This document shows positions 32,049-50,810 of a stretch of DNA of 64,000 nt, in pieces. Position 1 is the first letter of the stretch, and each line of letters opens with the position of its first letter. Location: positions 1,940 through 65,939 of the forward strand of contig CAZUBI010000001.1 in the NCBI GenBank assembly GCA_964618625.1, in the 5' to 3' direction. Both the position numbers and the translations under genes were made by a program. The notes under the pieces are model-generated. The model was not told where the DNA came from. It ran no database searches and was given only the letters and a program-made list of their open reading frames with translations. The stretch is from an uncultured Candidatus Saccharibacteria bacterium. GTDB taxonomy: Bacteria > Patescibacteriota > Minisyncoccia > UBA6257.

Positions 32049-32057
32049 ATAGATATC

Positions 32058-32450: not shown

Positions 32451-32504
32451 AGAAAAAGTTTGAATTTTGTTGAAGATTAAAGGTTAGCGAAAATTAAAAT
32501 TAAT

Positions 32505-33161: not shown

Positions 33162-33185
33162 TAAAGTTTTATTGATTAAACTCAA

Positions 33186-34172: not shown

Positions 34173-34247
34173 TTTTAAGAAATAGCTGATGAATTAAGAA
34201 ATACAAAAGAAGAGTGCGTTAATAAAAAGAATTATTGAATAGCTTTT

Positions 34248-34946: not shown

Positions 34947-34954
34947 TCCCTAAT

Positions 34955-35389: not shown

Positions 35390-35530
35390 TACTTATATTA
35401 CTGGGTACTAACCTCATGTGGTCTGTTTTTGCTCTTAGTTTGGCATTATGAAAATAATTCGTATAATAACCAGTTGTACGGAATAGAAAAACATATTTAT
35501 TAAAATAGAATTTTGGAGTAAAATAAATTT

Positions 35531-36493
35531 ATGTTAAACAATATAAAAGATTTTGTAGAGATTTTTAAATGCCCCGATTGCGAGGAAGATTTAGTTATTG
35601 ATGGTGAAAATCTTAAGTGTAGAAAATGTGACAGAATTATTCCTGTGGTTAATGGTGTTGCGATTTTTTTATCACAAAAAGAATGGAAAGAGTTTTTTAG
35701 TAAAAGCCACAACTTTGAGAATTATACTATGGATAGCGAAAAACTCTTTTTTCAAGAAATTTTAGAGCAAAATGATTATTTAAAGTCTATTGAGATGATT
35801 GATAAATATACTGATTCGGAAGAGAATAAAAAAACTTTTGCGGAAATAACTGGCTCGACAGGAACTGATGATAAAGAATTAGAAAGAGCAATTTTGGAAG
35901 CAAATGATAAGATATTAGATAAGGGCGAGGTTGATAAAGCAAAAATGATTTTGGACTGGCCGACTGGCCCAGGCGCTTTTATTCTAAGAATGGTTAATAA
36001 AATTAGTAGGGATGTTGTTGTTGTAAGTTCTGAGATTAATCTATTCAGTATTTTTCGATTAAAAAAATATCTAGAATCAAAAGGGTTAGCTGACAATATT
36101 CTTTTTGTAAACAATGATGTTATAAAAATGCCATTTAAAGACGATGTTTTTGACTTGGTATCGGTATTTGGATTGACCGTTGAAGTTCCAGATTCAGATA
36201 AAGCTTTGAGTGAGACATACAGAGTTATGAAATCTGGCGGGGTAATCGTAGGGAGTGGAGAGATATATAAAGAAGGTTCTGAAAGTATGAAATTGGCCGA
36301 TGAAATGAATATTGGCCAGCTTTGTACAAGTGAAAGATTTTCTCAGAAAATAAATAAAATCGGTTTTAAAAACATTGATATTGAAATCGCTTATGAAGGC
36401 TATGATACGGATGATTTACCGGACGAAGAAAGATGTCCACTGCCCGCGAGAGGTGATTGGTTTTCTTACGTTATCATAAAGGCAGAAAAATAA
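35531..36493 (+). CDS. class I SAM-dependent methyltransferase with an N-terminal Trm112-like zinc ribbon
   Basis: CPDCEEDL...CRKCDRIIPVVNGVAIFL, then the motif I-like ILDWPTGPGAF and motif II VVVVSSEIN. Confidence 0.6.
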   Translation: MLNNIKDFVEIFKCPDCEEDLVIDGENLKCRKCDRIIPVVNGVAIFLSQKEWKEFFSKSHNFENYTMDSEKLFFQEILEQNDYLKSIEMIDKYTDSEENKKTFAEITGSTGTDDKELERAILEANDKILDKGEVDKAKMILDWPTGPGAFILRMVNKISRDVVVVSSEINLFSIFRLKKYLESKGLADNILFVNNDVIKMPFKDDVFDLVSVFGLTVEVPDSDKALSETYRVMKSGGVIVGSGEIYKEGSESMKLADEMNIGQLCTSERFSQKINKIGFKNIDIEIAYEGYDTDDLPDEERCPLPARGDWFSYVIIKAEK

Positions 36494-36505
36494 TCTTTTC
36501 TATTA

Positions 36506-37309
36506 ATGATGAAAGAAATAGAAATTATTCAACAATTTGAGGATATTTTTATTAAAGCTGGAAAGCTGGCAGTTAAATTGAGAAATAATGCTGTTATTGA
36601 GCAAAAGCATAATTCTGGGATAAAGGATATTGATATTGTCACGAGTGCAGATTTAACTGTTCAAGAATTCGTGTTGGAGAAATTAGCAGTATCAGAATTG
36701 AAGCACTGTGAAATCGTTGCAGAAGAAGATACCCCTAGTAGAAACTTGTTTGCCAAATCTTCTAATTTTGTAATTACTATTGATCCAATTGATGGTACAA
36801 AGCTATACGCCAGTGGTAAAAAGATGTATTCCATAATCATAACCGTTCATAATAAAAAAAGGCCGATTTATACTTTTTGTTATTTTCCTGAGGTTAAATG
36901 GGGGGTGAAAATTGTTTATGATGAATGTCATTTTTTTGGTAATAAGCCAAAAATAATACATAATACAGTTCAGCCAAAGACGATTGTTTACTCATTTTAT
37001 AACTCAAAAGGAAATCCTATAGATTCTATTCATGGGCAACCCAAAGAATTATTAAAAGAGCGTTATATTTTTCGGAATAAAAAAGAAATTACCAATGAAG
37101 CTGGTTCAACTGCCCTTTTCTTATTAGGAATTGTTGATGGATATTTTGTAGAAAATGGATCAGCTGTTGATTGCCTTGTCGGACTTCATTATGCATTAGC
37201 ACGAGGGTTTAAAGTTTACCAAAATATTGATTTAGAAAAAACGGTTTCGAGTAAACTTTCTAGTGGAAGCGAAGAATATAGAGGTAATTATTTGGTTATT
37301 AGAAATTAG
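36506..37309 (+). CDS. inositol monophosphatase/FBPase family phosphatase
   Basis: VITIDPIDGTKLY metal-binding motif (DPIDGT), and WDCLVG-like ALARG region. Confidence 0.6.
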   Translation: MMKEIEIIQQFEDIFIKAGKLAVKLRNNAVIEQKHNSGIKDIDIVTSADLTVQEFVLEKLAVSELKHCEIVAEEDTPSRNLFAKSSNFVITIDPIDGTKLYASGKKMYSIIITVHNKKRPIYTFCYFPEVKWGVKIVYDECHFFGNKPKIIHNTVQPKTIVYSFYNSKGNPIDSIHGQPKELLKERYIFRNKKEITNEAGSTALFLLGIVDGYFVENGSAVDCLVGLHYALARGFKVYQNIDLEKTVSSKLSSGSEEYRGNYLVIRN

Positions 37310-37364
37310 AAACATTAACAGAAAAATAAAAAGAATTTATTGTCAAAACAAAAATCATATTACA

Positions 37365-37395
37365 AATCGCCAAAAAGGCGATTTTTTGGTAGAAT
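37365..37395 (+). terminator. Box C only (hairpin + TGGTAGAAT)
   Basis: AATCGCCAAAAAGGCGATTTTTTGGTAGAAT, 13 nt before the ATG at 37409. The upstream reading frame translates the repeat as KSPKRRFFGRI. Confidence 0.55.
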
Positions 37396-37408
37396 AAAGG
37401 ATATAAAC

Positions 37409-37759
37409 ATGTCATATATATTAAGAAAAATCAAAGATAGTAATTCAAAGGATATAACTTGTGGAGTAATGCGCAATTTGACTACAGCGGGAGATTTTAA
37501 AGAAATGGATTTTGCTCATGTTACTATTACAGACAAAACTAAGGAGCATTATCATAAAGAACTCACTGATGTCTATTATGTATTAAAAGGTTCTATAGCT
37601 ATTGAAATTGATGGAAAGGTTGAGAATTTAGAAGAGGATTCATTAATAATGATTTATCCGAATACAAATCATAAAGCTTGGAAAACAAGTAAAGAAGACG
37701 CAGAAATCTTAGTAGTATGTTGTCCTCCTTGGAGCGAGGAAGATGAAATATTAGTTTAA
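37409..37759 (+). CDS. cupin domain protein
   Basis: EHYHKELTDVYYVLKG...IYPNTNHKAW, a two-His cupin motif. Start placed after the Box C promoter. Confidence 0.5.
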   Translation: MSYILRKIKDSNSKDITCGVMRNLTTAGDFKEMDFAHVTITDKTKEHYHKELTDVYYVLKGSIAIEIDGKVENLEEDSLIMIYPNTNHKAWKTSKEDAEILVVCCPPWSEEDEILV

Positions 37760-37763
37760 TATT

Positions 37764-38105
37764 ATGAAATTAGATTCCGCAATATTTTATACAAATAATT
37801 TAGAAAAAGTTATTCCTTTTTACAGGAATATAGTTGGTTTGAATATAGAATATATTCAAGAAGGTAAATTTGTTTCTTTTAAATTTGAAAATGGGAGATT
37901 AGGTATAAAACAGGCAAAAGAAAAAAGAGAGATACCAGGGCATCAAACTATTTTTATAGAAATAGAAGACATTGAGAAAACATATAATGAGTTTAAGGAA
38001 AAAGGAATAATCTTTTTAAAGGAATTAACACAAGAAAATTGGGCAACTAATTTTAGTTTTCTTGATCCTGATGGCAACAAGATTCAATTTATGAAAAGAA
38101 AATAG
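37764..38105 (+). CDS. VOC/glyoxalase-bleomycin resistance family protein
   Basis: A beta-alpha-beta-beta-beta module with FLDPDGNKIQF at the C-terminus. Confidence 0.65.
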   Translation: MKLDSAIFYTNNLEKVIPFYRNIVGLNIEYIQEGKFVSFKFENGRLGIKQAKEKREIPGHQTIFIEIEDIEKTYNEFKEKGIIFLKELTQENWATNFSFLDPDGNKIQFMKRK

Positions 38106-38131
38106 GTTTCAACATCGTTCCATAGCCCCAG
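38105..38131 (+). repeat. Box A only copy (variant)
   Basis: GGTTTCAACATCGTTCCATAGCCCCAG. Confidence 0.5.
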
Positions 38132-38235
38132 CAAATTAAGTTTAAAAAGTCGCCCTCTTGATATTTCTCTTACAATATTGTAAAGTTAGGGCAAAAGGTC
38201 GGAGCTTCATTAATATTAAATTTTGACCAAATATT

Positions 38236-38463
38236 ATGATTGTAGAATTTGTTTTAAAAGAGCGTCCCTCAGAATTAAAGATTGAAGGTTACGAAGAATT
38301 AGATTTTACCATTGGTTCTGTTTTTGCAAGCCCAGTAGATAAAAGAGTGGAAGTAGTAGTTAAAAAACATCCCGATGGAAGAGTAAGTATATTTACCGAC
38401 AAATCAGAGGTTATAAAAACCATCACTCAAACAACTGAAGTTGTTGATATTCACGTCAAATAA
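38236..38463 (+). CDS. hypothetical small protein
   Basis: 75-aa ORF. Confidence 0.3.
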   Translation: MIVEFVLKERPSELKIEGYEELDFTIGSVFASPVDKRVEVVVKKHPDGRVSIFTDKSEVIKTITQTTEVVDIHVK

Positions 38464-38476
38464 ACGAAAACTAAAA

Positions 38477-38507
38477 AATCGCCAAGAAGGCGATTTTTTG
38501 GTAGAAT
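38477..38507 (+). terminator. Box C only
   Basis: AATCGCCAAGAAGGCGATTTTTTGGTAGAAT, 8 nt before the ATG at 38516. Confidence 0.55.
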
Positions 38508-38515
38508 AGAAGTAT

Positions 38516-38812
38516 ATGAGAACAATTCCTTTCCCTTTTAGATACAAGAAAGCCTTATTAAATAAGACTAAAAATACGACTATTCGCGTTAGCAAGGAAG
38601 TTGGAAAATACAAGAAAGGAAGAATTTATGTAACAGAATCTTATGCTGGTAGAAATTGGGGTGTTAAAATCAAAATTAATGATGTAGTTTCTACAAAACT
38701 AGGCGATCTTAAAGATTTCGGAATTCCTAAACAAAGCATCAATGCTATTTTAAAACAAAAAGGAATTTCCCTCAAAAGCAAAGCAGATTTGATTAGATTT
38801 GAGATAATATGA
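38516..38812 (+). CDS. ASCH-like small protein
   Basis: 98 aa, PUA-like beta-barrel pattern (TIRVSKE...KGRIYV). Weak call. Confidence 0.3.
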   Translation: MRTIPFPFRYKKALLNKTKNTTIRVSKEVGKYKKGRIYVTESYAGRNWGVKIKINDVVSTKLGDLKDFGIPKQSINAILKQKGISLKSKADLIRFEII

Positions 38813-38813
38813 A

Positions 38814-38908
38814 AGTTTCAACATCGTTCCATAGGGACAGCTATCTAGTTTTTTATCGAGGGACCGAGATACATCAAAATCGCCAAAAAGGCGATTTTTT
38901 GGTAGAAT
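38814..38908 (+). repeat. cassette junction (variant Box A + Box B + Box C)
   Basis: AGTTTCAACATCGTTCCATAGGGACAG, then CTATCTAGTTTTTTATCGAGGGACCGAGATACATCAAA, then ATCGCCAAAAAGGCGATTTTTTGGTAGAAT. Confidence 0.6.
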
Positions 38909-38917
38909 ATAGATAAT

Positions 38918-39865
38918 ATGAAAATTGGAGACGTATTTTTTGCAAAAGTTAAAAGCTTTGAGGAATTTAAAGATTTTATCAAGAACTTAGATATTAAGGC
39001 TGACATTTTTATTATTAAACCAAATTGGGTAGAGCCATCTAAAGGGCAATACACAGAAGTGCTGCCACTGCAATGGTTGTTTGATTGTTTGGATGGAACA
39101 AAAATAATAATAGAGAGCCATACTGCTTGGAGAAATAAACTTCTTTTGGAGACTGGAAAAGTTATTGTTAATGCGGATAACGTAAGTCAGAAAAGAGATT
39201 TTTTAAGAGAAAATGACAAATGGTTTCTTGAAGCTACGGGCTTAAAAGAATTATTAAAAAAATATAATGTTGAGTATATAAATATTACAGAAGAAGTATG
39301 GAAAGGAGAAGTTGTTGACTCTGAAATTATTAGAGAAATTGTAGAGGAAAAATTCGCCGCTGTTCAACATAAAGAGTTATACAGCGTAATTCCTAAAAAG
39401 ATATTTGGATTAAAAAATACTGTTTTGATTGATTTGGCAAAAATTAAGACAGACGGAAGCGTTGTGATGAGTTTATCAACTAAAAATCTTTTTGGCTTGA
39501 TTCCAGATCCAAAACGTTCTCCAAGATATCACGACCATGAGAAGAAGATACTTCCTTACGCAATTTTAGATATGAATAAAATTTATCGTGCTCTTTTTAA
39601 AACTGTATTTATAAACGAGGGAATTTTTACTGCAATAGACGGACCTTCGCCAGAACAAGGAAGATTAAAAGAAGGCCTTAATTTAATTGTTGCCGGTCAT
39701 AATTCTATTGATGTTGATTTAACAACAGCAAAACTTGTTGGAATTAACCCAGAAGAATTGTTAGATAATTTACTTCAGCCAGTTAATGAAGTTTTCGGCT
39801 CAAGCCCGGAAATATTAACTGATATCCCGGAGAATTTTTCTGATAGATTGAATTATAAAGATTGA
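38918..39865 (+). CDS. DUF362-like protein
   Basis: IIKPNWVEP pattern. Weak call. Confidence 0.35.
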   Translation: MKIGDVFFAKVKSFEEFKDFIKNLDIKADIFIIKPNWVEPSKGQYTEVLPLQWLFDCLDGTKIIIESHTAWRNKLLLETGKVIVNADNVSQKRDFLRENDKWFLEATGLKELLKKYNVEYINITEEVWKGEVVDSEIIREIVEEKFAAVQHKELYSVIPKKIFGLKNTVLIDLAKIKTDGSVVMSLSTKNLFGLIPDPKRSPRYHDHEKKILPYAILDMNKIYRALFKTVFINEGIFTAIDGPSPEQGRLKEGLNLIVAGHNSIDVDLTTAKLVGINPEELLDNLLQPVNEVFGSSPEILTDIPENFSDRLNYKD

Positions 39866-39885
39866 TTATTAAAAAACCATTAAAA

Positions 39886-39912
39886 AGCTTCCAACATCGT
39901 TCCATAGCCCCA
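39886..39912 (+). repeat. Box A only copy (variant)
   Basis: AGCTTCCAACATCGTTCCATAGCCCCA followed by TTGACT-17-TATATT promoter-like sequence. Confidence 0.5.
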
Positions 39913-39924
39913 ACTTTTTATCTA

Positions 39925-40094
39925 TTGACTTTTAATATAAAATATGCTATATTTATGATATCCTATAATGGGATATTTTTAGTTCTTTGAAAAAGAATAT
40001 TTCTACTATCTGCTATATAACTGATCATTACATATGATTAGTGGTTGGTTATATGGCAGGTAGTTAAAGTATAAAATAAAAAACTTAGAAAGGA
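39925..40094 (+). promoter_or_regulatory. diverged family-2-like promoter and long leader
   Basis: TTGACT-17-TATATT, about 130 nt of leader, then CTTAGAAAGGAGTGAAAAAAATG. Compare TTTAGAAAGGAGTAAGAAAATG in copy 1. Confidence 0.4.
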
Positions 40095-40574
40095 GTGAAA
40101 AAAATGCATAAGAACAAAAAGGTAGATGAGATAAAATTTGAGATGAGTATTAGTGGTATTAGTTGCGATGGTACTCAAAGCGTGTTTTTGAAAGTGTTTG
40201 GTAAAGAGATTGCGCTCAGATATTTTTATGACGGAATTCCCAAAATTTACATTCGTGTAGATGAAAAAGAGAAAGAGATTTCCTTGAAACGAGATCCAGT
40301 ATCCTTTTTCGCTTATCCATTAATGAAGATATTTGAAGTGTCGGAGGAAACAGATAAGGAAATGGATGAAAAAAAAATAAATGTAAAATTCGAGATTTTG
40401 GAAAAACTGTCAAAAGATATAGGAAAAACAGACTATGAGCTCATAATATGTTTCAGACCATTATTGGAATACAACCCAGATAATATAAGATATATTGATG
40501 TTAGCTTTGAGAGTTTAAGGAAGACAGATTATAAGAGGGAGGTAATTTTTGCACATTTTATTCCTAATTACTAA
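40095..40574 (+). CDS. hypothetical protein
   Basis: 159 aa with a strong SD. No recognised domain. Confidence 0.4.
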   Translation: MKKMHKNKKVDEIKFEMSISGISCDGTQSVFLKVFGKEIALRYFYDGIPKIYIRVDEKEKEISLKRDPVSFFAYPLMKIFEVSEETDKEMDEKKINVKFEILEKLSKDIGKTDYELIICFRPLLEYNPDNIRYIDVSFESLRKTDYKREVIFAHFIPNY

Positions 40575-40689
40575 GTTTAAATAATTTTATCGAAGAAGAA
40601 CGGATAATTAATTGATTAAAATTTACATCAAGATATCCGTTTTTTTATTTAAACAGATTTTAATATTGTTAAGCAATTTGAGCCAAAAA

Positions 40690-40776
40690 GGTTCCAACAT
40701 CGTTCCATAGCCCCAGCCGTCTAGTTTTTTTTATCGAGGGACCGAGATACATCAAAATCGCCAAAAAGGCGATTTT
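40690..40776 (+). repeat. cassette junction (Box A + Box B + Box C with TGATAAAAT)
   Basis: GGTTCCAACATCGTTCCATAGCCCCAG CCGTCTAGTTTTTTTTATCGAGGGACCGAGATACATCAAA ATCGCCAAAAAGGCGATTTTTTGATAAAAT. Confidence 0.6.
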
Positions 40777-40805
40777 TTGATAAAATAAATTAATAGTAGA
40801 TAGTT

Positions 40806-41651
40806 ATGAAATTTAAAATTTCCAAAACTAAATTCAAAGGTCCCTTTAATCTAAAATTAACTTTAGATTCTGATCAATGTCCTTCAGATATCTGGTGCCT
40901 TAAAAATGGAAAATATACGACATTTATTGAATTAAAGAATAATTGGATTCCAATAGCAGTTTGGGAAGAAAAAGAAAATCTATTTTTTGAATGTAAAGAA
41001 GATATTTCTGAGAAGCTTCTTTATCATTTTTGGTCAGATTATTATTTATTAAGATTTTATTCTGAGTTTGCTTCAGATAAATATATATCAAAAGCTATTA
41101 ATTTCTGCCAAGGTTTAAGACTAATGCGAGATTGGGATATAAATTACAGGATTATTGAAGCAATCTTAACTCAAAATGCTTCTGTCAAACAAATTAGAAA
41201 TATGGAGAGTAATTTGAGAAATTTTTATGGCAATCAACATACTTTTAATTTGGAAGAAATTGCAAATGCAAACGAAAAGAAGATTCAGAAGAAATGTAAA
41301 GTTGGATATAGGGCAAAATATCTTATAAGTGTAGCCAGAAAAATTTTAAATAACGAATTAAACATTGAGCAAATAAAAGAAATGGATAGCACTGATGCAA
41401 GGAGATTACTAACAGATATTGAAGGAATAGGACCAAAGGTTGCAGATATAATTTTACTTTATGGATTCGGCAAAATAGATACTTTTCCAATGGACGTTTG
41501 GTTAAGAAGGGCATTGACTAGAGAATATTTTAAAGGAGAACAAACTTCGGATAAAAAACTAAGAGAGTTTGCTCTGAATTATTTTGGCAGGCATGCTGGA
41601 ATAGCGCATTTATACATGTTTTATTACGAAAGGAAAATTAAATCTTCATAA
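40806..41651 (+). CDS. 8-oxoguanine DNA glycosylase/AP lyase (Ogg, HhH-GPD)
   Basis: KVGYRAKYL, then HhH DIEGIGPKVADIILLYGFG with the catalytic Lys, and FPMDVWL with the Asp. Confidence 0.65.
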   Translation: MKFKISKTKFKGPFNLKLTLDSDQCPSDIWCLKNGKYTTFIELKNNWIPIAVWEEKENLFFECKEDISEKLLYHFWSDYYLLRFYSEFASDKYISKAINFCQGLRLMRDWDINYRIIEAILTQNASVKQIRNMESNLRNFYGNQHTFNLEEIANANEKKIQKKCKVGYRAKYLISVARKILNNELNIEQIKEMDSTDARRLLTDIEGIGPKVADIILLYGFGKIDTFPMDVWLRRALTREYFKGEQTSDKKLREFALNYFGRHAGIAHLYMFYYERKIKSS

Positions 41652-41655
41652 TAAA

Positions 41656-41682
41656 GGTCCCAACATCATTTCATAGCCCCAG
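41656..41682 (+). repeat. Box A only copy (variant)
   Basis: GGTCCCAACATCATTTCATAGCCCCAG. Confidence 0.5.
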
Positions 41683-41721
41683 CACGAGTTAGTATAGTAT
41701 CAAGAAACTAATGTTATAAAT

Positions 41722-42381
41722 ATGGAAAACAACCTACAAAATATTAAAGCTGTGATCTTTGATGTTGATGGCACTTTATCTTCTCAAATATCGTGGACAG
41801 CTCTCACAAAAGATTTAGGAGCATCAGTCGAGAAACATCTTGAGATTTTTAAAGAGTTTAAAGAACAAAAGACCACATATGAGGTATCCAAGAAAAAACT
41901 TTTGATATTATGGAAAGAAACTGGTAATGCCAAACGACAATTTTTAGAACAGCTATTTATAAACTGGCCACTCAGAAAAGACGCAGAAGAAATCATTTCA
42001 TTTTTAAAAAATAAAGAATATCTTCTGTGTATTATAACTGGCTCTTTTGATTTATATGCACAAATTATTGCCAAAAGATTAGGGATTAAGTATTATTTTG
42101 CAAACACAAAACTTGATTGGGATTCTAAAGGGAATCTTACTGATTTTCATTATTTTAAAGATCAAGCGTCCAAGAAATTAGAGCAATTTACTGAATTTTG
42201 TAAAATGCAAAATATAAAGTCGGAAAACTGTGTGGCCGTTGGCGATGATGAAAATAATATTAAACTTTTTAAAATCATGAAAGGTATAGCTGTAAAATCG
42301 ATTCATTCTGAACCACTAGAAGAAATTGCTTGGAAGACAATAAATAACCTTTTAGAACTAAAAGAGATTTTAAGTAGATGA
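41722..42381 (+). CDS. HAD-IB hydrolase (phosphoserine phosphatase-like)
   Basis: Motif I VIFDVDGTL, motif II ITGS, and motif IV VAVGDDENNIKLF. Confidence 0.7.
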   Translation: MENNLQNIKAVIFDVDGTLSSQISWTALTKDLGASVEKHLEIFKEFKEQKTTYEVSKKKLLILWKETGNAKRQFLEQLFINWPLRKDAEEIISFLKNKEYLLCIITGSFDLYAQIIAKRLGIKYYFANTKLDWDSKGNLTDFHYFKDQASKKLEQFTEFCKMQNIKSENCVAVGDDENNIKLFKIMKGIAVKSIHSEPLEEIAWKTINNLLELKEILSR

Positions 42382-42481
42382 GTTAATCCATTACAGGGTT
42401 GTACCACTTTTTAGTATGCTTGGAATCTGTCGTTGTGGTAAAAAATCAGCTTTTATCGAGAGATCGAGATACACAATCGAC

Positions 42482-42605
42482 TGTTGACCCATAATCTATA
42501 ATCTGGTATTATATAAATGATAAAAGGTAGTCTGAAAAGGTTATTTTTTAAAATTTCAATTGCACTCTTGAAAATTAAAAAAATTTTAGATAAGGAGGAA
42601 AAATA
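42482..42605 (+). promoter_or_regulatory. family-2 conserved promoter and long 5' leader, copy 2
   Basis: TTGACC-17-TATTAT, then the leader, then TTGCACTCTTGAAAATTAAAAAAATTTTAGATAAGGAGG. Preceded by a Box B-like TTTTATCGAGAGATCGAGATACACAATCG. Confidence 0.55.
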
Positions 42606-42728
42606 AATGAATAAAATGATAGAAAAAGTGTTATATCAAGCATGCAAAAATAAAAGAGATATTCTTTGTTTAATACCCAAGGAAGGAGGAAATCTTGCGC
42701 TAGCATTTTCTGCACCTAATATGATTAA
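42606..42728 (+). CDS. small ORF (40 aa)
   Basis: Strong SD AAGGAGG 8 nt upstream. First ORF after the family-2 leader. Not in the ORF track because it is under 60 aa. Confidence 0.25.
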
Positions 42729-42776
42729 ACTTTCTTTAGAAAAAGATAGAAAAAATAAAAAAGGAGGTAAAAGAAA

Positions 42777-43205
42777 ATGAAAAAAGATGTAAGTAATATA
42801 GTATCTTTAAAAATTGTTCTTATTCGAATACAAAATCTGCATAAGAAGATTTCTCAAGAAGAAGATATGGCAATAGATATGAATCAACATGCCAATCTTT
42901 ATTTCAAAAAACAAATGACAATTTTTAGGAAATTACTTAAAGAATTGGGTAAGAGAATTTATAAAGAAACTAGATCTAAATCAGACGGTATGAAATTCAT
43001 AACATCTAATGTTAAAAAGGTGAAATGTAGAATTACTGAAAAAGGGCAAATAGTTGGAGAAATATTTTTTGATTTTTATCCTTTCCATTTGGAAAATTTT
43101 GTTAAGAAAAACAAATTGAGTTTTGTAAAAAAAGTAGCAGTTCTATTAGAGATACCTAAAGAATATATTGATATACGTTTTCACATGACGGAAGATGCAA
43201 AATAG
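42777..43205 (+). CDS. hypothetical protein
   Basis: 142 aa, SD AAGGAGG upstream. Confidence 0.4.
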   Translation: MKKDVSNIVSLKIVLIRIQNLHKKISQEEDMAIDMNQHANLYFKKQMTIFRKLLKELGKRIYKETRSKSDGMKFITSNVKKVKCRITEKGQIVGEIFFDFYPFHLENFVKKNKLSFVKKVAVLLEIPKEYIDIRFHMTEDAK

Positions 43206-43260
43206 GGGAAGTGAAGAAAAATGAAGAAACTAAAATCTAAACAATAAAGGAGAGGGAGAA

Positions 43261-43467
43261 ATGACGACTAATAAATATCTTGTGATTTATTGGGAGCATG
43301 GATCGGATGGAACTGGGAAAAGTATTATAAAGCACTGTAAAGAAAATACAAACCAATATATTTGGCTGACCAAGGAAGAAGCATTGCAAGCCTATGCAGA
43401 AGCAAAGAGGCAGAAGAAGCAGAATCTTATGATTTTAAAGAGAGTCGTGAGTTTTGAGAGGAGGTAA
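43261..43467 (+). CDS. hypothetical small protein
   Basis: 68 aa, SD AAGGAGAGGGAG upstream. Confidence 0.35.
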   Translation: MTTNKYLVIYWEHGSDGTGKSIIKHCKENTNQYIWLTKEEALQAYAEAKRQKKQNLMILKRVVSFERR

Positions 43468-43602
43468 AAATGATAATCGAAGGGAGCTCTTCAAATTCCA
43501 TTAAGGATTTTGTAGGATCTCCCTTTTTTATTATCTAAAACAGGTTCTAGCTCTTCGGAAAGCTCAGAGCATAGTAAAGTTCAATTCTGGGAGCGGGTTT
43601 TT

Positions 43603-43635
43603 AAAATCGCCAGAAAGATGATTTTTTGGTATTAT
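43603..43635 (+). terminator. degenerate Box C (TGGTATTAT)
   Basis: AAAATCGCCAGAAAGATGATTTTTTGGTATTAT, 8 nt before the ATG at 43644. Confidence 0.4.
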
Positions 43636-43643
43636 AGAGATAT

Positions 43644-43958
43644 ATGGAAGAAAAACATATAGCAATGTGTGGATTAGAATGTAATACTTGCGAAGCATTC
43701 ATTGCTACAAAAAATAATAATTATGATTTAAGAAAGAAAGTTGCAAAGGAATGGACAGAAAGATATAAAATCAATCCCCCTTTAGAGCCGAGGGATATTA
43801 ATTGTCGGGGTTGTTTATCGCAATACGGACCATTGTATAGAAATTGTCTTTTGTGTGAAGTTAGAAAATGTGGATTTAGTAGAGGGATTAAAAATTGTAA
43901 AGAATGTAAAGATTATAAATGCGATAAGCTCACAAATCTACAAAATAATCTTTTTTAG
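43644..43958 (+). CDS. Cys-rich DUF3795-like protein
   Basis: CGLECNTCEAF, CRGC, CLLCEVRKC, CKECKDYKCDKL. Confidence 0.45.
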   Translation: MEEKHIAMCGLECNTCEAFIATKNNNYDLRKKVAKEWTERYKINPPLEPRDINCRGCLSQYGPLYRNCLLCEVRKCGFSRGIKNCKECKDYKCDKLTNLQNNLF

Positions 43959-43977
43959 AGAAGAAAATCTTAGAAAA

Positions 43978-44072
43978 GTTCCAACATCGTTCCAGAGGGC
44001 CAGCTGTCTAGTTTTTTTATCAAAAGACCGAGATACATTAAAATCGCCAAAAAGGCGATTTTTTGGTAGAAT
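43978..44072 (+). repeat. cassette junction (variant Box A + Box B + Box C)
   Basis: AGTTCCAACATCGTTCCAGAGGGCCAG CTGTCTAGTTTTTTTATCAAAAGACCGAGATACATTAAA ATCGCCAAAAAGGCGATTTTTTGGTAGAAT. Confidence 0.6.
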
Positions 44073-44081
44073 ATAGATAAT

Positions 44082-45236
44082 ATGGAAGAGCTATATTCAG
44101 ATATTATTAAATTCACGAAACAATTAGTAGAAACACCATCTCAGAATGGTATTGATTCTGAAAAAAGAATGGCTGATTTGGTATCTGCGAAACTATTTCA
44201 ATTTGGTTTTTCTCCTAAAATTATAGGAAATAAAGAACATCCATCTGCATTTTGTAAAATTAGGAAAAATCCAAAAGGGAAGACTATTTGGCTTGAATCT
44301 TGTCTTGATACTATACCGGCTGGAGATATAAAAAAATGGAAATATCAACCTCTTAAAGCCACAATTAAAGGTTCAAAGATGTATGGGAGAGGCGTAGCCG
44401 ATTCTAAAGTTGGAATAGCTCTTTTTTCTTATTTGGCTAAAGAACTTTATAATAATCCAGAATTTAAGGGAAATATTGTTCTTGGTTTTGATGCTAATGA
44501 ACAAAGTGGAGAATATTCTGGTATAAGAGATATTATAAAATATAAAAAACCAGAAGCTGACGTCTGTATTTTGGGCTATCAAGGTATAGACGAAATTTCT
44601 ATTGGAATGAGGGGTTGGTTAAGATTACAGATTATCACTAAGGGAAAGGCAGCTCATACAGGGAGCAGAAGCAAGAAAGGTAACAATGCGATTCATCAAA
44701 TGACAGAGGTTATTGCGGCCTTAAGGAAATTAAATCTTGGAAGCAAGAAAGGACCATATTTTGAATATGGTTCTAATTTTAATGTATCACTTATTGAAGG
44801 AGGTATTTCTATAAATATTGTTCCTGATGAATGTAAAATAAAGATTGATATAAGATTTCTGCCATCACAAACAAAACAAGAAATTTTAGATAAAATATCC
44901 AAGACATTAAAAGGATTAACAAAGAAAAAGCCTAATATTTATTACGAAATAGAATTTTTGCGATCTGAACCTTCTTTCCTAACTAATCCCAAAGATAAAT
45001 TTGTAAAATTATTACAGAAAATAGCTCAGGATGAACTAAAAACCAGCATTCCAATTGTTACGAGTGGAGCAGGTAGCGTAGGAAGTGTTATTACTAAACT
45101 TAACATACCGATAATAAATTGTTTTGGTTGTAAAAGTAATAATATTCATGCTCCAAATGAATGGATAGATATTAACACTGTGCCTAAAGTCTTTGAAATT
45201 TACAAAAAAGTAATTTTAGAGTTTTGCAAAGATTAG
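44082..45236 (+). CDS. M20 family metallopeptidase (ArgE/DapE-like)
   Basis: DTIPAGD, GRGVADSKVG, the EQSGEYSG metal-ligand region, and a dimerisation insert. Confidence 0.75.
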   Translation: MEELYSDIIKFTKQLVETPSQNGIDSEKRMADLVSAKLFQFGFSPKIIGNKEHPSAFCKIRKNPKGKTIWLESCLDTIPAGDIKKWKYQPLKATIKGSKMYGRGVADSKVGIALFSYLAKELYNNPEFKGNIVLGFDANEQSGEYSGIRDIIKYKKPEADVCILGYQGIDEISIGMRGWLRLQIITKGKAAHTGSRSKKGNNAIHQMTEVIAALRKLNLGSKKGPYFEYGSNFNVSLIEGGISINIVPDECKIKIDIRFLPSQTKQEILDKISKTLKGLTKKKPNIYYEIEFLRSEPSFLTNPKDKFVKLLQKIAQDELKTSIPIVTSGAGSVGSVITKLNIPIINCFGCKSNNIHAPNEWIDINTVPKVFEIYKKVILEFCKD

Positions 45237-45260
45237 TTTTTGATTATTTTCTATAAAATA

Positions 45261-45326
45261 GGTTCCAACATCGTCCCATAGCCCCAGCAAATTAGAATCG
45301 CCAAAAAGGCGATTTTTTGGTAGAAT
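45261..45326 (+). repeat. cassette junction (Box A + Box C)
   Basis: GGTTCCAACATCGTCCCATAGCCCCAGCAAATTAGAATCGCCAAAAAGGCGATTTTTTGGTAGAAT. Confidence 0.6.
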
Positions 45327-45335
45327 AGAAATAAT

Positions 45336-45842
45336 ATGGAAGATGAATATTTAGATATAGTTGATGAGAATGATAATGTCAAAAGCAAAGACACGAGGGA
45401 GAATATTTGGAAAAGAGGATTAGAGCACAATGTAAGAGTTGTAAATATTTTTATTTTTAATTCAAAAGGGGAATTACTTCTGCCAAAAAGGTCAATGAAT
45501 AGAAGGATTTTTCCAGGATGTTATGATTTTTCTTGTGGCGAGCATGTTCAAGCTGGAGAAGATTATTATGATGCTGCACTCCGAGGATTAAAAGAGGAAT
45601 TAGGAATCGTAGATCAAAAATTAGTTGAGTTGGGAAAAATAACTCCAAAAGAAGGAGTAAATTGTTTTATGAAAGTATATAAATTAACCTATGATGGAGA
45701 AATAAATAAGTATGATAAAAACGGAATTGATAATTTATTCTGGTATGATTTAATAACAATAAAAAAGATAATTAAAGAAGATAAGAATAAATTTAAAACA
45801 GATTTCCCGATTGTTTTAGAATGGCTACAGCAATTTAGTTGA
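45336..45842 (+). CDS. Nudix hydrolase
   Basis: Nudix box GGEHVQAGEDYYDAALRGLKEELGI. Confidence 0.7.
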   Translation: MEDEYLDIVDENDNVKSKDTRENIWKRGLEHNVRVVNIFIFNSKGELLLPKRSMNRRIFPGCYDFSCGEHVQAGEDYYDAALRGLKEELGIVDQKLVELGKITPKEGVNCFMKVYKLTYDGEINKYDKNGIDNLFWYDLITIKKIIKEDKNKFKTDFPIVLEWLQQFS

Positions 45843-45907
45843 GATAAGACGAGAAGGAATTTTTTTATACTGCCTCATTTATCTTATTTGTGATAAAATA
45901 ACTTCAA

Positions 45908-45952
45908 TCAAGATACGTCGAAATCGCTAAAGAGGCGATTTTTTGGTAGAAT
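45908..45952 (+). terminator. Box B-like + Box C
   Basis: CAAGATACGTCGAAATCGCTAAAGAGGCGATTTTTTGGTAGAAT, 6 nt before the ATG at 45959. Confidence 0.5.
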
Positions 45953-45958
45953 AAGAAT

Positions 45959-46381
45959 ATGAAAATTATAATTGGTGGAAGTATGACTTTCGCCCGAGAA
46001 CAACTTGAAGTCAAAGAAACGTTAGAAAAAAATGGGCACAGTGTTTCATTGACTGATAATATAGAAGATTATGCTAATCATCCTAATATTAAGAAAAGTT
46101 TTAAGGAGGAACTTCAGTTATGTTTGAAAGATGACATTATGAGAAGTTTTTTTAATAAGATCGCGGAAAGCGATGCTTTTTTAGTTTGTAATTACCCAAA
46201 TAAGAAAATTGAAGGATATATAGGAATATCTGTTTTAATGGAACTTGGTCTAGCTTACTATTTAAATAAAAAGATTTATTTACTCTACGAAATTGATCAA
46301 TCACAGAAATATGCTTTAGAGGTAGCGATTATAAATCCTGTAATTCTGAATGGAGACTTGTCCAAGATTGATAGTATCTAG
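45959..46381 (+). CDS. nucleoside 2-deoxyribosyltransferase-like fold protein
   Basis: N-terminal IIGGSMTF (compare YFGAGWF) and the catalytic-Glu context GISVLMELGLAYYLNKKIYLL. The family includes NDT, LOG and nucleotide N-glycosidases. Confidence 0.45.
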   Translation: MKIIIGGSMTFAREQLEVKETLEKNGHSVSLTDNIEDYANHPNIKKSFKEELQLCLKDDIMRSFFNKIAESDAFLVCNYPNKKIEGYIGISVLMELGLAYYLNKKIYLLYEIDQSQKYALEVAIINPVILNGDLSKIDSI

Positions 46382-46390
46382 GGGAAAAAA

Positions 46391-46456
46391 GGTTCCAACA
46401 TCGTTCCATAGCTTCAGCGAATTATAATCGCCAAAAAGGGGATTTTTTGGTAGAAT
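46391..46456 (+). repeat. cassette junction (Box A + imperfect Box C)
   Basis: GGTTCCAACATCGTTCCATAGCTTCAGCGAATTATAATCGCCAAAAAGGGGATTTTTTGGTAGAAT. Confidence 0.6.
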
Positions 46457-46464
46457 AGAACAAT

Positions 46465-46899
46465 ATGAAAAATATAACTAAAAAAGATCAAAAACTTATA
46501 GAAGAAGCAAAGCGTGTCGCAAAAAAGTTTTCAAAAGAAATTTGGTTTTCAAAAATAACTCACAAAAAGAGGAAAATTTCTACCGTCGGTGCTGCCTTAA
46601 GAACAAAAAAAGGAATTGTATACTCCGGTCCAAATATTTATCATCCTTACTCTAGTTCCTCATCAATATGTGCTGAATATACTGTAATTGCAAAAACATA
46701 TAGTGAAGGACATAGAGATATTGATACAATCGTCGCTTGCTGGTACAAAGGAAAGCCTAATCGGGATATATTACCGCCTTGCGGGCAATGTAGAGAGCTT
46801 TTGAGATTATTTGGAGATCCTTGGATAATTATTCAAACAGAAAGTGGGGTTAAAAAAGAAAAACTTAGTAAACTTCTGCCCTATGGAGACGATTTTTAA
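46465..46899 (+). CDS. cytidine/deoxycytidine deaminase family protein (small tetrameric type)
   Basis: Zinc ligands in HPYSSSSSICAEYTVI (CAE) and PPCGQCREL (PCxxC). Confidence 0.7.
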   Translation: MKNITKKDQKLIEEAKRVAKKFSKEIWFSKITHKKRKISTVGAALRTKKGIVYSGPNIYHPYSSSSSICAEYTVIAKTYSEGHRDIDTIVACWYKGKPNRDILPPCGQCRELLRLFGDPWIIIQTESGVKKEKLSKLLPYGDDF

Positions 46900-46922
46900 A
46901 TTTAATAAATATTAATCAAAAA

Positions 46923-46988
46923 GGTTCCAACATCGTTCCATAGCCCCAGCAAATTAGAATCGCCAAAAAGGCGATTTTTTGGTAGAAT
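46923..46988 (+). repeat. cassette junction (Box A + Box C), consensus copy
   Basis: GGTTCCAACATCGTTCCATAGCCCCAGCAAATTAGAATCGCCAAAAAGGCGATTTTTTGGTAGAAT. Confidence 0.6.
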
Positions 46989-46995
46989 AAGGTAT

Positions 46996-48408
46996 ATGAA
47001 ATTACAATCAATTAACCCCACAACGAAAGAATCTTTAGGAGAATTTGAATCATATTCCGAAGGAATGGTTTTTGATGCAGTTGAAAAAGCCAGAAAATCT
47101 TTTGAAGAATGGAAAAATACCTCTATTTCCAAAAGAGAAAACATCATAAAGAATTTTTCTCGAATACTTGTTAAAAAGAGAAATGAGGTTGCAGAGCTTA
47201 TAACAAAAGAGACGGGAAAACCCATAATAGAGTCGGAGGGGGAAGTGGATGAAATTTTTGGATTAACAGAGTGGTTTTTAAAGGAGACGAAGAATATCAT
47301 TAAAGATGAAAACATTAAACTTGATGTAGATAATGCTTCCGCAAAAGTAAAATTTGAACCAATAGGCGTCGTGGGACTAATTACTCCTTGGAATTTCCCG
47401 ATTAGCACTCCAGCTTGGAAAATAATTCCAGCTTTATTAACGGGTAATACCGTAGTTTTTAAACCTTCTGAACTTTCAACATTTTGTGGTCTAAAGATAG
47501 ATGAAATACTAAAAGAAGCTGGTTTACCAAAAGGTATATTCAACACGATTACTGGAGATGGCAGAACTGGGAAAGATCTCGTTGTCTCCAAAGTGAATAT
47601 GATATCCTTTACTGGTAGTAGTGTGGTCGGTAAAGATGTAGCAGGTAATTCGGGCAAGGGTTTAAAAAAAGTTGTTTTAGAATTAGGTGGCAGTGACCCT
47701 TGTATTATTTTTGATGATGCAATTTTAGAGCAAGCTATTAACGCTGCTTTATTTGGTAGGTTTTTGAATTGCGGTCAGGTTTGCACTGCAGCAAAAAGGA
47801 TTTTTGTTGATAGAAAGATATACGATTCTTTTATTAAGAAATTTGTTCAAAAAGTAAAAGTTTTGAAAATTGGTAATCCATTGGAGAGGAAAACAGAAAT
47901 TGGACCAATCGTGAGTAAAGCTCAATTAGAGAATTTGGAAATTCAAGTAAAGGATGCTATTAACAAAGGAGCTAAACTTCTTTGTGGTGGCAAGAGATTA
48001 GAAGGCAAAGCATATTTCTATGAGCCAACTGTATTAACGGATATCGCAGACGAAATGTTAGTAGCAAAAGAAGAAGTTTTTGGCCCAGTTGCTTCTATAT
48101 TTAGTTTTGATTCTATGGAAGAAGCAATTAAGATGGCGAACAATACAAAATATGGTTTAGGAGCTTCTATTTGGACGAAAGATAGTGAGAAAGCAGAGAA
48201 AGTTGCAAATAGTATTGAAAGCGGAATGGTTTGGATAAATGATTTCGGGACGCCCTATCCGCAGTGTCCCCAGGGTGGCATAAAGGAAAGTGGGATAGGC
48301 AGAGAGTTGTCTAAATACGGTATTTTAGAATTTTGTAGCATGAAAACAATTATAAATTCTAAAGATGAGACGGTTAAAAAACCTTGGTGGTTTCCGTATA
48401 ATTCATAA
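46996..48408 (+). CDS. NAD(P)-dependent aldehyde dehydrogenase
   Basis: ELGGSDP, FLNCGQVCTA (catalytic Cys), and the GTPYPQ C-terminal region. Confidence 0.85.
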   Translation: MKLQSINPTTKESLGEFESYSEGMVFDAVEKARKSFEEWKNTSISKRENIIKNFSRILVKKRNEVAELITKETGKPIIESEGEVDEIFGLTEWFLKETKNIIKDENIKLDVDNASAKVKFEPIGVVGLITPWNFPISTPAWKIIPALLTGNTVVFKPSELSTFCGLKIDEILKEAGLPKGIFNTITGDGRTGKDLVVSKVNMISFTGSSVVGKDVAGNSGKGLKKVVLELGGSDPCIIFDDAILEQAINAALFGRFLNCGQVCTAAKRIFVDRKIYDSFIKKFVQKVKVLKIGNPLERKTEIGPIVSKAQLENLEIQVKDAINKGAKLLCGGKRLEGKAYFYEPTVLTDIADEMLVAKEEVFGPVASIFSFDSMEEAIKMANNTKYGLGASIWTKDSEKAEKVANSIESGMVWINDFGTPYPQCPQGGIKESGIGRELSKYGILEFCSMKTIINSKDETVKKPWWFPYNS

Positions 48409-48415
48409 CTAAACA

Positions 48416-48481
48416 GGTTCCAACATCGTTCCATGGCCCCAGCAAATTAGAATCGCCAAAGAGACGATTTTTTGGTAGAAT
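48416..48481 (+). repeat. cassette junction (Box A + Box C), last copy
   Basis: GGTTCCAACATCGTTCCATGGCCCCAGCAAATTAGAATCGCCAAAGAGACGATTTTTTGGTAGAAT. Confidence 0.6.
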
Positions 48482-48489
48482 TAGAGAAT

Positions 48490-49113
48490 ATGAAAAAAAT
48501 CTGCATAGACCCAGGACATCCATCATACTTCAGAGGAACCCAAAAAATAAATTGGGGCTGTGTACAAGGTGATGTGAAAGAGGTGGAATTAAATCTCATA
48601 TTAGCCAATTTATTGAAAGATATACTACAAAAGAAAGATTTTGTCACAGTTTTAACAAGGTATGATAATAAGAAAGTTGTTTCCAATAAAGATAGAGCAA
48701 GAATTGCAAAAGATTTTAATGCTGATCTATTTTTAAGAATTCACGCCAACAATAGGGGAGATGAGAATACCATAGTGAGCGGTGTGAAAACAATTTATCC
48801 GCCTCCTACTGCCAAAGCTATTTCAGTACAATCCTATGCAATAGCCTTAAGTATACATAGAGAAATCATAAAAAAGACAGGGTTAGTAGATAGAAGTGTC
48901 TGTGATGATCGTATAACTGCTCGCAAGAATGAGTTGGGTATGCTTATAGGAACATATTGGGCAAACAAGTATAAGATACCGACAGTGCTAATTGAAACGG
49001 TTTACCTTTCTAACCCAGAAAATAGACGATGGATTTTAAAATCAGCAAATCAGAAGTTAATGATGGAAGCTGTGGCAAAAGGAATAGAGCAATATTTTAA
49101 AGGAAAAGGATAA
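48490..49113 (+). CDS. N-acetylmuramoyl-L-alanine amidase (Amidase_3-like)
   Basis: KICIDPGH, DLFLRIHANN. Start moved to the ATG after the Box C promoter. Confidence 0.65.
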   Translation: MKKICIDPGHPSYFRGTQKINWGCVQGDVKEVELNLILANLLKDILQKKDFVTVLTRYDNKKVVSNKDRARIAKDFNADLFLRIHANNRGDENTIVSGVKTIYPPPTAKAISVQSYAIALSIHREIIKKTGLVDRSVCDDRITARKNELGMLIGTYWANKYKIPTVLIETVYLSNPENRRWILKSANQKLMMEAVAKGIEQYFKGKG

Positions 49114-49184
49114 AATTCGGCGTAACATTATTGCAATTTAAATAAATTTATAAAAAAATATGAAAAAAGATAAACTAGATTCAA

Positions 49185-49249
49185 CTGCTATAGGGACAGC
49201 AGCATTTTTTTACTAATAAAATATGGAGGTTGAACCTCCATATTTTTTG
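49185..49249. terminator. two hairpin terminators between convergent genes; the second is bidirectional
   Basis: CTGCTATAGGGACAGCAGCATTTTTTT and ATATGGAGGTTGAACCTCCATATTTTTTG. Confidence 0.6.
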
Positions 49250-49978: not shown

Positions 49979-49979
49979 C

Positions 49980-50076
49980 TTGACAAATTATTTTTGTTTG
50001 CTATAATGAAAATGCTGTTGTCTAGAGATATTAAATAGCTTGCTATCTAATTTCGAAAGGCGACAGCATTTTTTTA
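49980..50076 (+). ncRNA. family-4 element copy 1: a sigma70 promoter directly driving a ~60-nt hairpin RNA that ends in a T-run
   Basis: TTGACA-17-TATAAT, then AATGCTGTTGTCT...inner AGATA/TATCT stem...AGGCGACAGCATTTTTTT. Confidence 0.4.
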
Positions 50077-50707: not shown

Positions 50708-50719
50708 TACAAATAACAC

Positions 50720-50810
50720 TTGACAAACTATTTTTCTTTGCTATAATGAAAGTGCTGTTGTCTTGAGGTATATAGCTTGCTATATATTAATGGGCAGCAG
50801 CATTTTTTTT
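50720..50810 (+). ncRNA. family-4 element copy 2: promoter driving a ~60-nt hairpin RNA
   Basis: TTGACA-17-TATAAT, then AGTGCTGTTGTCT...inner TATATAGC/GCTATATA stem...GGGCAGCAGCATTTTTTTT. The inner stem differs from copy 1 but still pairs. Confidence 0.4.

Follow-up and report, generated by a model that had tools for sequence, protein, structure and literature searches.

The 64-kb stretch of DNA analyzed here (64,000 nucleotides of a contig from an uncultured Candidatus Saccharibacteria bacterium; hereafter, the window) carries a short repeat, Box A, that punctuates a ~20-kb run of ~30 small plus-strand accessory genes of unrelated function. We read Box A as the attC-like, cassette-borne recombination site of a tRNA-anchored cassette system in the Patescibacteria, or candidate phyla radiation (CPR), and put the probability of this reading at about 0.6. 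Four observations carry it: Box A forms a repeat family that keeps to one strand of each locus, the arrays are anchored at tRNA genes, Box A is homologous to the 3′ part of tRNA-Gln, and whole cassettes have moved between arrays with their junctions at Box A.

Box A is a conserved block at the ends of co-oriented genes

The copy at 46923–46949 (+ strand) reads GGTTCCAACATCGTTCCATAGCCCCAG and contains GTTCCA at 46924 and again at 46935, i.e., 11 nucleotides (nt) apart, which is the GTTCCA-N5-GTTCCA geometry that an earlier note on this DNA had described. Matches to this pattern with up to two mismatches numbered 15 in the window versus 3.0 expected, while the 22-mer CAACATCGTTCCATAGCCCCAG occurred 13 times with up to three mismatches versus 0.00 expected (100 shuffles). 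All 13 of these close matches were located on the + strand between 30326 and 48442. A fourteenth, divergent copy, GGTTCCAATCCAAGACCCCCAGC, was found at 29387–29409 (+), preceded by a tRNA-Ser gene and not by an open reading frame (ORF), such that all 14 copies are confined to 29387–48442 on the same strand. We thus recovered the previously reported count of 14, as well as the reported split into nine copies that are followed by a hairpin-promoter module called Box C (three of them via an intervening sequence, Box B) and five that are not (at 30321, 30817, 38105, 39887, and 41656). The statement that Box A always sits just 3′ of a stop codon held for the 13 close copies, where the gap from the stop codon of a + strand ORF was 0 to 116 nt, and failed for the fourteenth, which follows the tRNA-Ser. 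A further, degenerate copy was present at the distal end of the array (49182–49200), after the last array gene.

Aligning 251 nonredundant contexts, we obtained a conserved block of 32 nt (positions −5 to +26, AAAAAGGTTCCAACATCGTTCCATAGCCCCAG), with an information content that fell abruptly at both edges. The two GTTCCA hexamers, which the earlier note had singled out, did not stand out: The spacer between them was equally conserved, and within the window, substitutions were even more numerous in the hexamers than in the spacer. For the copy at 46923, the block including its AAAAA lead-in spans 46918–46949. The conservation of this lead-in is not an ascertainment artifact, because AAAAA lay outside every search pattern. 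A coding interpretation of Box A (GGT TCC AAC ATC GTT CCA TAG, yielding GSNIVP*) was considered and dropped, as the conservation is at the nucleotide level and the real ORF stops upstream.

The same repeat was found in many related loci, which we denote by L-numbers where they were compared with the window. A 20-mer, GTTYCAAYATCGTTCCATAG, was present in 21 stretches of GTDB genomes, nearly all of them CPR/Patescibacteria metagenome-assembled genomes (MAGs) or probably mis-binned contigs, and in at least 119 metagenome contigs; Box A was absent from the viral contigs searched. Using a 28-mer with up to five mismatches, we counted 346 Box A copies in 137 CPR genome and metagenome loci (the window and related loci). 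None of these 137 loci carried Box A on both strands, in line with the single orientation seen in the window, and successive copies were spaced by a median of 920 bp. ORFs inside the arrays were almost uniformly co-oriented (248, versus 8 in the opposite direction). The linkage to stop codons likewise extended beyond the window, with a median gap of 57 nt from stop codon to Box A for 289 copies in related loci.

Arrays are anchored at tRNA genes, and Box A resembles a tRNA-Gln 3′ half

The array in the window starts directly after tRNA-Ser(gga) at 29262–29351. In all 40 loci that contain a tRNA gene, the nearest one was located upstream of the array on the same strand; this anchor was a tRNA-Ser (gga, cga, or gct) in ~32 loci and a tRNA-Gln in ~6. 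At 16 to 40 nt past the tRNA-Ser, we observed the sequence GTGGTTCGAATCCA[AC]GTCCCCCAGC, of which the window holds a slightly diverged form, ATGGTTCCAATCCAAGACCCCCAGC. In L008, L012, and L043, the form GGTTCGAATCCA[AC]GTCCCCCAG showed an exact 22-mer match to the 3′ ends of bona fide tRNA-Gln genes, comprising the T arm, the acceptor strand, and the discriminator base. Together with an upstream ATTGGA or ATCGGA, this pseudo-site covers tRNA-Gln from the anticodon loop to the 3′ end, the segment that typically forms the identity block of integrases targeting tRNA genes (PMC4383910). In general, tRNA 3′ halves commonly serve as attachment (att) sites (PMC4383910; 10.1101/2020.12.28.424599).

Other loci showed the equivalent arrangement at genuine tRNA-Gln genes. 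In L120, the array begins, with Box C, directly at the real tRNA-Gln 3′ end; L098 has Box B and Box C behind a real tRNA-Gln, just as the window has them behind Box A, and in L086, Box B comes after a real tRNA-Gln. A tRNA-Gln 3′ end thus takes the place that Box A has in the A-B-C and A-C units of the window, such that these units and the tRNA-Gln end with its flank are colinear. In a MAFFT alignment, Box A differed from the tRNA-Gln halves by a single 6-nt insertion, (C/T)ATCGT, between GGTTC(G/C)AA and TCCA, located in the former T-loop, which it widens to 13 nt. The second GTTCCA consists of the GT of this insertion and the TCCA of the old T-stem, and the period-11 repeat is therefore a by-product of the insertion. 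The sequence that frequently precedes Box A (TTGAGCC, TCGGAGCC) aligned with tRNA-Gln at its anticodon loop and stem, TTGGAGCC. We could also confirm the previously noted GAGCyAAA that copies share on their 5′ side; it represents the portion of the block that derives from the anticodon stem. From these alignments, Box A appears to be the conserved core of a ~45-nt sequence that descends from the 3′ part of tRNA-Gln. The repeats are not copies of the adjacent tRNA-Ser.

The same tRNA-Gln block was also found in a different setting. In L155, it lies beside a Pfam-confirmed tyrosine integrase, and in L151, two copies of it are located 7.95 kb apart. Searching for the pseudo-site pattern, we otherwise matched only ordinary tRNA-Gln genes and classical att pairs of unrelated, higher-GC elements.

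Whole cassettes change neighbors, with junctions at Box A

Comparison between loci revealed that array genes move as units. The M20 peptidase cassette of the window (44082–45236) shares 93% protein identity with the first cassette behind tRNA-Ser(cga) in L008, and the DNA homology between the two continues through Box A and ends at CCCCAG. Conversely, in L010, the flank GroEL-LemA-HtpX-DUF4870-tRNA-Ser(gga) was 90 to 96% identical at the amino acid level, while the cassettes behind it were entirely different. Among pairs of Box A copies, 35 had the same upstream but a different downstream cassette and 57 showed the reverse, and several pairs combined 100% identity on one side with unrelated sequence on the other. 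Identity with the upstream partner ended at position +25/+26, where positions +26 and +27 went with the downstream cassette and the sequence left of −5 with the upstream one. Rare Box A variants accompanied the upstream cassette and not the promoter. Both the variants and the junctions thus bear out the earlier suggestion that Box A belongs with the 3′ end of the gene before it and not with the promoter that comes next. For the copy at 46923, the upstream cassette was 99% identical in L133, and the downstream neighbor differed from +26 onward.

Upon scoring cassettes that matched in full length (≥85% identity, ≥90% of the length), we found both neighbors to be the same in 48 cases, both different in 29, and only one different in 5. 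About 13 distinct cassette families contributed to this comparison, including the M20 peptidase and aldehyde-dehydrogenase cassettes, the latter of which was 88% identical in L052, L035, and L069 with both neighbors different. The ratio of 29 to 5 is more readily explained by single cassettes being excised and inserted than by an occasional single crossover.

The array in the window and its promoter modules

The core genes upstream of the window array encode DnaK/DnaJ, GroEL, LemA, and HtpX, and those downstream encode Mur ligase, TrxB, QueA, and Tgt; the G+C content of the array matches that of its flanks. By Pfam, the array products comprise Exo/endo-phosphatase, HAD, S51 and M20 peptidases, HhH-GPD glycosylases, methyltransferase, cupin, glyoxalase, DUF362, DUF3795, NUDIX, cytidine deaminase, aldehyde dehydrogenase, and amidase. 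The features are as follows, all on the + strand.

29262–29351 (+): tRNA-Ser(gga), proximal anchor of the array (ARAGORN, Rfam)
29387–29409 (+): putative primary (attI-like) site, a pseudo tRNA-Gln 3′ half that is also the fourteenth Box A (match to tRNA-Gln 3′ ends, MAFFT)
29387–49200 (+): whole cassette array between core genes (gene content; L010 has the same flank and another array)
30321–30347 (+): Box A, no Box C after it (motif match)
30817–30843 (+): Box A, then a TTGACC...TGGTATCAT promoter module (motif match)
31983–32009 (+): Box A with Box C, ahead of a nine-gene cassette or operon at 32058–38105 (motif match)
38105–38131 (+): Box A overlapping the end of the glyoxalase TAG stop, 38105 being the first Box A base (motif match, ORF)
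38814–38840 (+): Box A (GGGAC variant), then Box B and Box C (motif match)
39887–39913 (+): Box A, then a TTGACT promoter module (motif match)
40690–40716 (+): Box A, then Box B and Box C; the same flank lies 3′ of the real tRNA-Gln in L098
41656–41682 (+): Box A (degenerate), no Box C (motif match)
43977–44003 (+): Box A, then Box B and Box C, ahead of the M20 peptidase cassette
45261–45287 (+): Box A closing the M20 peptidase cassette; the homology shared with L008 reaches as far as CCCCAG
46391–46417 (+): Box A, then Box C (motif match)
46923–46949 (+): Box A closing the cytidine-deaminase cassette (motif match; comparison with L133)
46959–46988 (+): Box C after the 46923 copy, hairpin and promoter of the next cassette
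46950–48442 (+): aldehyde-dehydrogenase cassette (Box C, ORF 46996–48408, Box A 48416–48442)
49182–49200 (+): distal Box A remnant, degenerate (CAACTGCTATAGGGACAGC), past the final gene of the array

Box C occurs in 12 copies in the window, all within the array (29418–48481), one of them at 46954–47008. It is characterized by a terminator-like hairpin, ATCGCC-AAAAA-GGCGAT followed by T6, that is set inside the spacer of a promoter (TCGCCA-17 nt-TAGAAT with an extended −10 TG; for the copy after the 46923 Box A, the −35 is TCCGCA-like and the extended −10 reads TGGTAGAAT). The ATG of the cassette gene follows only ~8 to 10 nt past the −10 box. This layout suggests that cassette mRNAs may be leaderless or near-leaderless and that Box C may be a terminator and a promoter in one. 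Box B, GTCTAGTTTTTTATCGAGGGACCGAGATACATC, is located at 38841–38878, 40717–40756, and 44004–44042 and contains a CGAG-GGAC-CGAG repeat; it is also the native sequence directly 3′ of the real tRNA-Gln in L098 and L086.

Two other promoter modules were observed at the 5′ ends of cassettes. One consists of a TTGACC-N17-TGGTATCAT promoter and a hairpin, AACCTTATAGGTT TTTTTT, followed by GCACTCTTGAAAATTAAAAAA and a Shine-Dalgarno sequence (window 30855–30956 and 42484–42586; also L006, L008, L016, L103, L125, and L148), and it could be a leader or an attenuator. The other combines TTGACT-N17-TATATT with the hairpin ATATCCTATAATGGGATAT and TTTTTAG (window 39915–39975; L010, L012, L062, L103, and L123).

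Across the related arrays, the cargo included NUDIX, glyoxalase, HAD, deaminase, peptidases, toxin-antitoxin modules, Fic, reverse transcriptase, HD, and trypsin-like proteins. Specific examples of a reverse transcriptase, SocA/Panacea-type toxin-antitoxin pairs, and Fic/DOC in cassettes were found at L012 3387–4988, L008 3991–4937, L010 2544–3521, and L021 910–1848; this cargo is of the defense and addiction type, as in chromosomal integrons. Some arrays are flanked by competence and pilus genes.

A model of cassette recombination and the search for an enzyme

In the model that we favor, each cassette would start with a promoter of its own, often Box C, contain one gene as a rule, and end in Box A. 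A recombinase encoded away from the arrays would join the Box A of an excised cassette either to another Box A or to a primary site, which would be the real 3′ end of a tRNA-Gln or the pseudo tRNA-Gln 3′ half just behind a tRNA-Ser. Repeated events of this kind would build and reshuffle the co-oriented arrays. Box A does behave like a site-specific recombination site, a flavor that the earlier note had already sensed in it, and catalysis by a site-specific recombinase is accordingly what we propose.

Several findings weigh against this reading. Pfam annotation of all sizeable ORFs revealed no recombinase in the 64-kb window. Screening 1,219 ORFs from 148 loci (~890 kb) with motif regular expressions, with phmmer using XerD, lambda Int, and the L155 integrase, and with a three-sequence hidden Markov model (HMM) likewise yielded no recombinase or integrase, or fragment thereof, albeit with limited sensitivity: Single-seed phmmer is insensitive, as lambda Int matched XerD only at E = 2.4, while the motif screen did recover the Pfam-confirmed integrase in L155 as a positive control. 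A recombinase would thus have to act in trans, because none was found in the window or in the ~890 kb of related loci. Furthermore, Box A lacks the dyad symmetry that is normal for the core sites of tyrosine and serine recombinases, and we found no circular cassette contig among the contigs checked for circularity and no Box A in viral contigs. Homologous recombination between the Box A/Box C repeats of 32 to 100 bp could also swap cassettes. Last, the crossover may well lie inside the 32-nt block, perhaps in its right half, which is weakly favored by polymorphism within Box A that is too sparse to fix the point. The absence of a linked recombinase and of dyad symmetry is why we hold our confidence at about 0.6.

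During these screens, we encountered an ORF with a helix-turn-helix and a double LAGLIDADG domain (Pfam PF14528, PF00961) that, in several genomes with arrays, lies directly 5′ of tRNA-Ser, co-oriented with it and with its frame running into the tRNA (L056 6937–7989, − strand; L061 4252–5304, + strand; L113 1684–2688, − strand; and L123, L139, L060, and L147). A truncated piece is located at L012 1097–1465, and the window has no such ORF. The ORF adjoins tRNA-Ser genes of four anticodons (cga, gct, tga, and gga). Judging by its domains and position, it looks like a free-standing homing endonuclease that may target tRNA-Ser genes.

Alternative explanations

A quite different history would make Box A a passive tRNA-Gln scar, left by the serial integration of integrase-bearing elements that have since decayed, with cassettes being shuffled by homologous recombination, e.g., after natural transformation. 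Partial tRNA repeats from serial integration are indeed known in tRNA-linked islands (10.1101/2020.12.28.424599), the arrays have no linked integrase, Box A often comes with real tRNA-Gln flank (Box B, Box C) that extends it to repeats of 75 to 100 bp on which homologous recombination could act, and competence and pilus genes lie beside some arrays. Independent scars would be expected to decay independently, however, yet more than 300 copies keep the 32-nt block and its 6-nt insertion with sharp edges amid unrelated flanks. The units are moreover mostly single genes of ~0.9 kb without integrase remnants, and the excess of two-sided over one-sided neighbor changes is better accounted for by excision and insertion of units. 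We therefore regard scars as an unlikely explanation. An enzyme of another type, the LAGLIDADG homing endonuclease, might instead cut at or near the tRNA or Box A, after which template repair would swap the cassettes. A monomeric LAGLIDADG enzyme typically has a target of ~20 bp, and Box A is asymmetric and, at 32 bp, somewhat longer. Seven related loci have the ORF next to tRNA-Ser. Neither the window nor most array loci contain it, however, and its neighbors include tRNA-Ser(tga), which has no array. Arrays at tRNA-Gln would remain unexplained, and we consider this route very improbable.

Box A could also act at the RNA level, as a 3′ untranslated region element that might affect mRNA processing or stability or imitate the 3′ end of a tRNA; its position at cassette ends would then be secondary. 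Its consistent location on the coding strand, past the stop codon and ahead of the Box C terminator hairpin, would suit such a role. So would the 5 nt that lie 5′ of AAAAA (GAGCC, AAGCC, GAGTC, and similar), which can pair with GGUUC, G·U pairs included, with at least four of the five pairs formed in 139 of the 251 copies versus ~10% in shifted controls. This pairing does not, in our view, establish a structure: The arm is inherited from the tRNA-Gln anticodon stem, its variation consists mainly, indeed almost only, of transitions, and the apparent covariation may thus reflect ancestry and not selection. Upon folding six Box A regions, the stable elements were the Box C terminator hairpin and one 5-bp stem, whereas the 22-nt core was predicted to be unpaired and the fold z-scores were weak. 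Rfam scans of the window (gathering threshold and E-value) returned only two tRNAs, with no match for Box A at E < 1. As an RNA element would also leave the tRNA anchoring and the cassette shuffling unexplained, we find it decidedly unlikely. The tandem hexamers had originally suggested a site for an OmpR/PhoB-type response regulator, and a transcription factor of this type, or a silencer, might co-regulate the cassette promoters. In its favor are the 11-bp distance between the two GTTCCA copies and the promoter that comes after most Box A copies. Conservation is, however, no lower in the spacer and flanks than in the hexamers, the distance from Box A to the next −35 ranges from 6 to more than 35 nt with no promoter at all after some copies, and neither a response regulator in general nor one of the OmpR family is encoded in the 64-kb window. 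With the second hexamer arising from an insertion into tRNA-derived sequence and rare variants following the upstream cassette and not the promoter, we give this idea hardly any credence.

Relation to known systems

The cassette-borne recombination site that we favor places the array functionally closest to integron cassette arrays and historically closest to tRNA-targeting integrative elements and their partial-tRNA repeats. As in integrons with their attC sites, including sedentary chromosomal integrons and clusters of attC sites lacking integron integrases (CALIN), the array has small, co-oriented, mostly single-gene cassettes with a repeat just past the stop codon, the same cassette recurs in different positions and arrays, a primary site lies at the array head, and the cargo consists of accessory enzymes, toxin-antitoxin, and defense genes. 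The differences are equally clear. Box A arrays have no adjacent intI (window Pfam; screens of 148 loci). An attC is an imperfect palindrome of 57 to 141 bp with R″/L″-L′/R′ boxes that is conserved in structure, whereas Box A is a 32-nt site that is conserved in sequence, has no dyad, and can form a stem of 5 bp at most. Integron cassettes are mostly promoterless and rely on the promoter Pc, whereas Box A cassettes bring promoters of their own (Box C or others), with the 3′ half of a tRNA-Gln, located behind a tRNA gene, as their primary site. We do not class the array as an integron, because it has no linked IntI and no palindromic attC and its cassettes are self-promoted.

With Islander-type islands (PMC4383910) and with the tycheposons of Prochlorococcus and their remnants (10.1101/2020.12.28.424599), the arrays share insertion at the 3′ portion of a tRNA gene and direct repeats that originate from a tRNA 3′ half, the outward displacement of older insertions by newer ones, and hypervariable islands at conserved tRNA loci; in L155 and L151, a classical element with an integrase uses the same tRNA-Gln block. 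Unlike in those elements, the Box A units are single genes of ~0.9 kb without an integrase or a replication module. Nor does Box A duplicate the adjacent tRNA: Hundreds of copies keep one and the same diverged sequence, which is tRNA-Gln-like and has an invariant 6-nt insertion, and most of the arrays lie behind tRNA-Ser via a pseudo tRNA-Gln half. Since the units contain no integrase, the array is not a classical integrative element either.

The Xer/dif systems, i.e., pdif modules and integrative mobile elements exploiting Xer (IMEX), are small modules with a site of ~28 to 32 bp whose recombinase is encoded elsewhere in the genome. Like them, Box A is a short conserved site that bounds small gene modules, and it would likewise be served by a recombinase in trans. 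A dif-like site is, however, a 28-bp imperfect inverted repeat (11-6-11), and pdif sites alternate in orientation, whereas the arms of Box A are, by sequence inspection, not inverted repeats, and its copies are linked to tRNA and keep one orientation. With OmpR/PhoB boxes, which in general consist of two similar hexamers about one helical turn apart, Box A shares only this appearance: Its distance to the −35 is not fixed, its hexamers are no more conserved than the rest of the block, no regulator gene lies nearby, and its repeat was born from an insertion into tRNA-derived sequence.

CPR genomes are very small, and how they gain and exchange genes is little understood. The data point to a modular, integron-like cassette system in these bacteria, with a modified tRNA-Gln 3′ half as its junction site. 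This system is widespread in CPR bacteria and apparently undescribed: In the full-text literature, we found no published description of the Box A motif or of an integron, cassette, or island system in CPR. A broader proposal, which we advance tentatively and at somewhat less than even odds, is that the arrays are a widespread CPR gene-capture platform, an independently evolved analog of integrons that arose from a tRNA-Gln att site. Such a platform would comprise self-promoted single-gene cassettes that leave and enter arrays at the 32-bp Box A, a trans-acting and possibly non-IntI recombinase, and several arrays per genome behind tRNA-Ser and tRNA-Gln, and it would be the main reservoir of accessory and defense genes. 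If the system is active, it would represent a second, independently evolved route to integron-type gene capture and a concrete target for finding a new recombinase/site pair, and Box A would be a simple tag for mining the flexible gene pool and defense genes of uncultured CPR bacteria.

Assembly breaks and neighboring repeats

Public short-read contigs of this organism that carry window proteins (L022 to L029) break exactly at the tRNA-Ser, Box A, or Box C and are therefore uninformative about variation in cassette order. The contig with LemA, for example, stops ~140 nt past the DUF4870 gene, and cassette contigs begin within Box C. Because these repeats interrupt short-read assemblies at the arrays, CPR MAGs probably underrepresent such arrays and, with them, the accessory genome.

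Between the DUF4870 gene and the tRNA-Ser, the window contains a perfect 12-bp hairpin, CTACCCAAATTT...AAATTTGGGTAG (29213–29255), which is probably the terminator of the DUF4870 gene. Downstream of the array, a 53-nt promoter-like repeat, CTTGACAAA..GCTATAATGAAA.TGCTGTTGTCT.GAG.TAT, was found in two copies (49979–50031 and 50719–50771; 91% identical) that precede a GGDEF gene and the next gene (183 aa), respectively. At least the first copy is followed by a hairpin, GCTGTTGTC...GACAGCA with T7 (50016–50075), which may be an attenuator or a small RNA.

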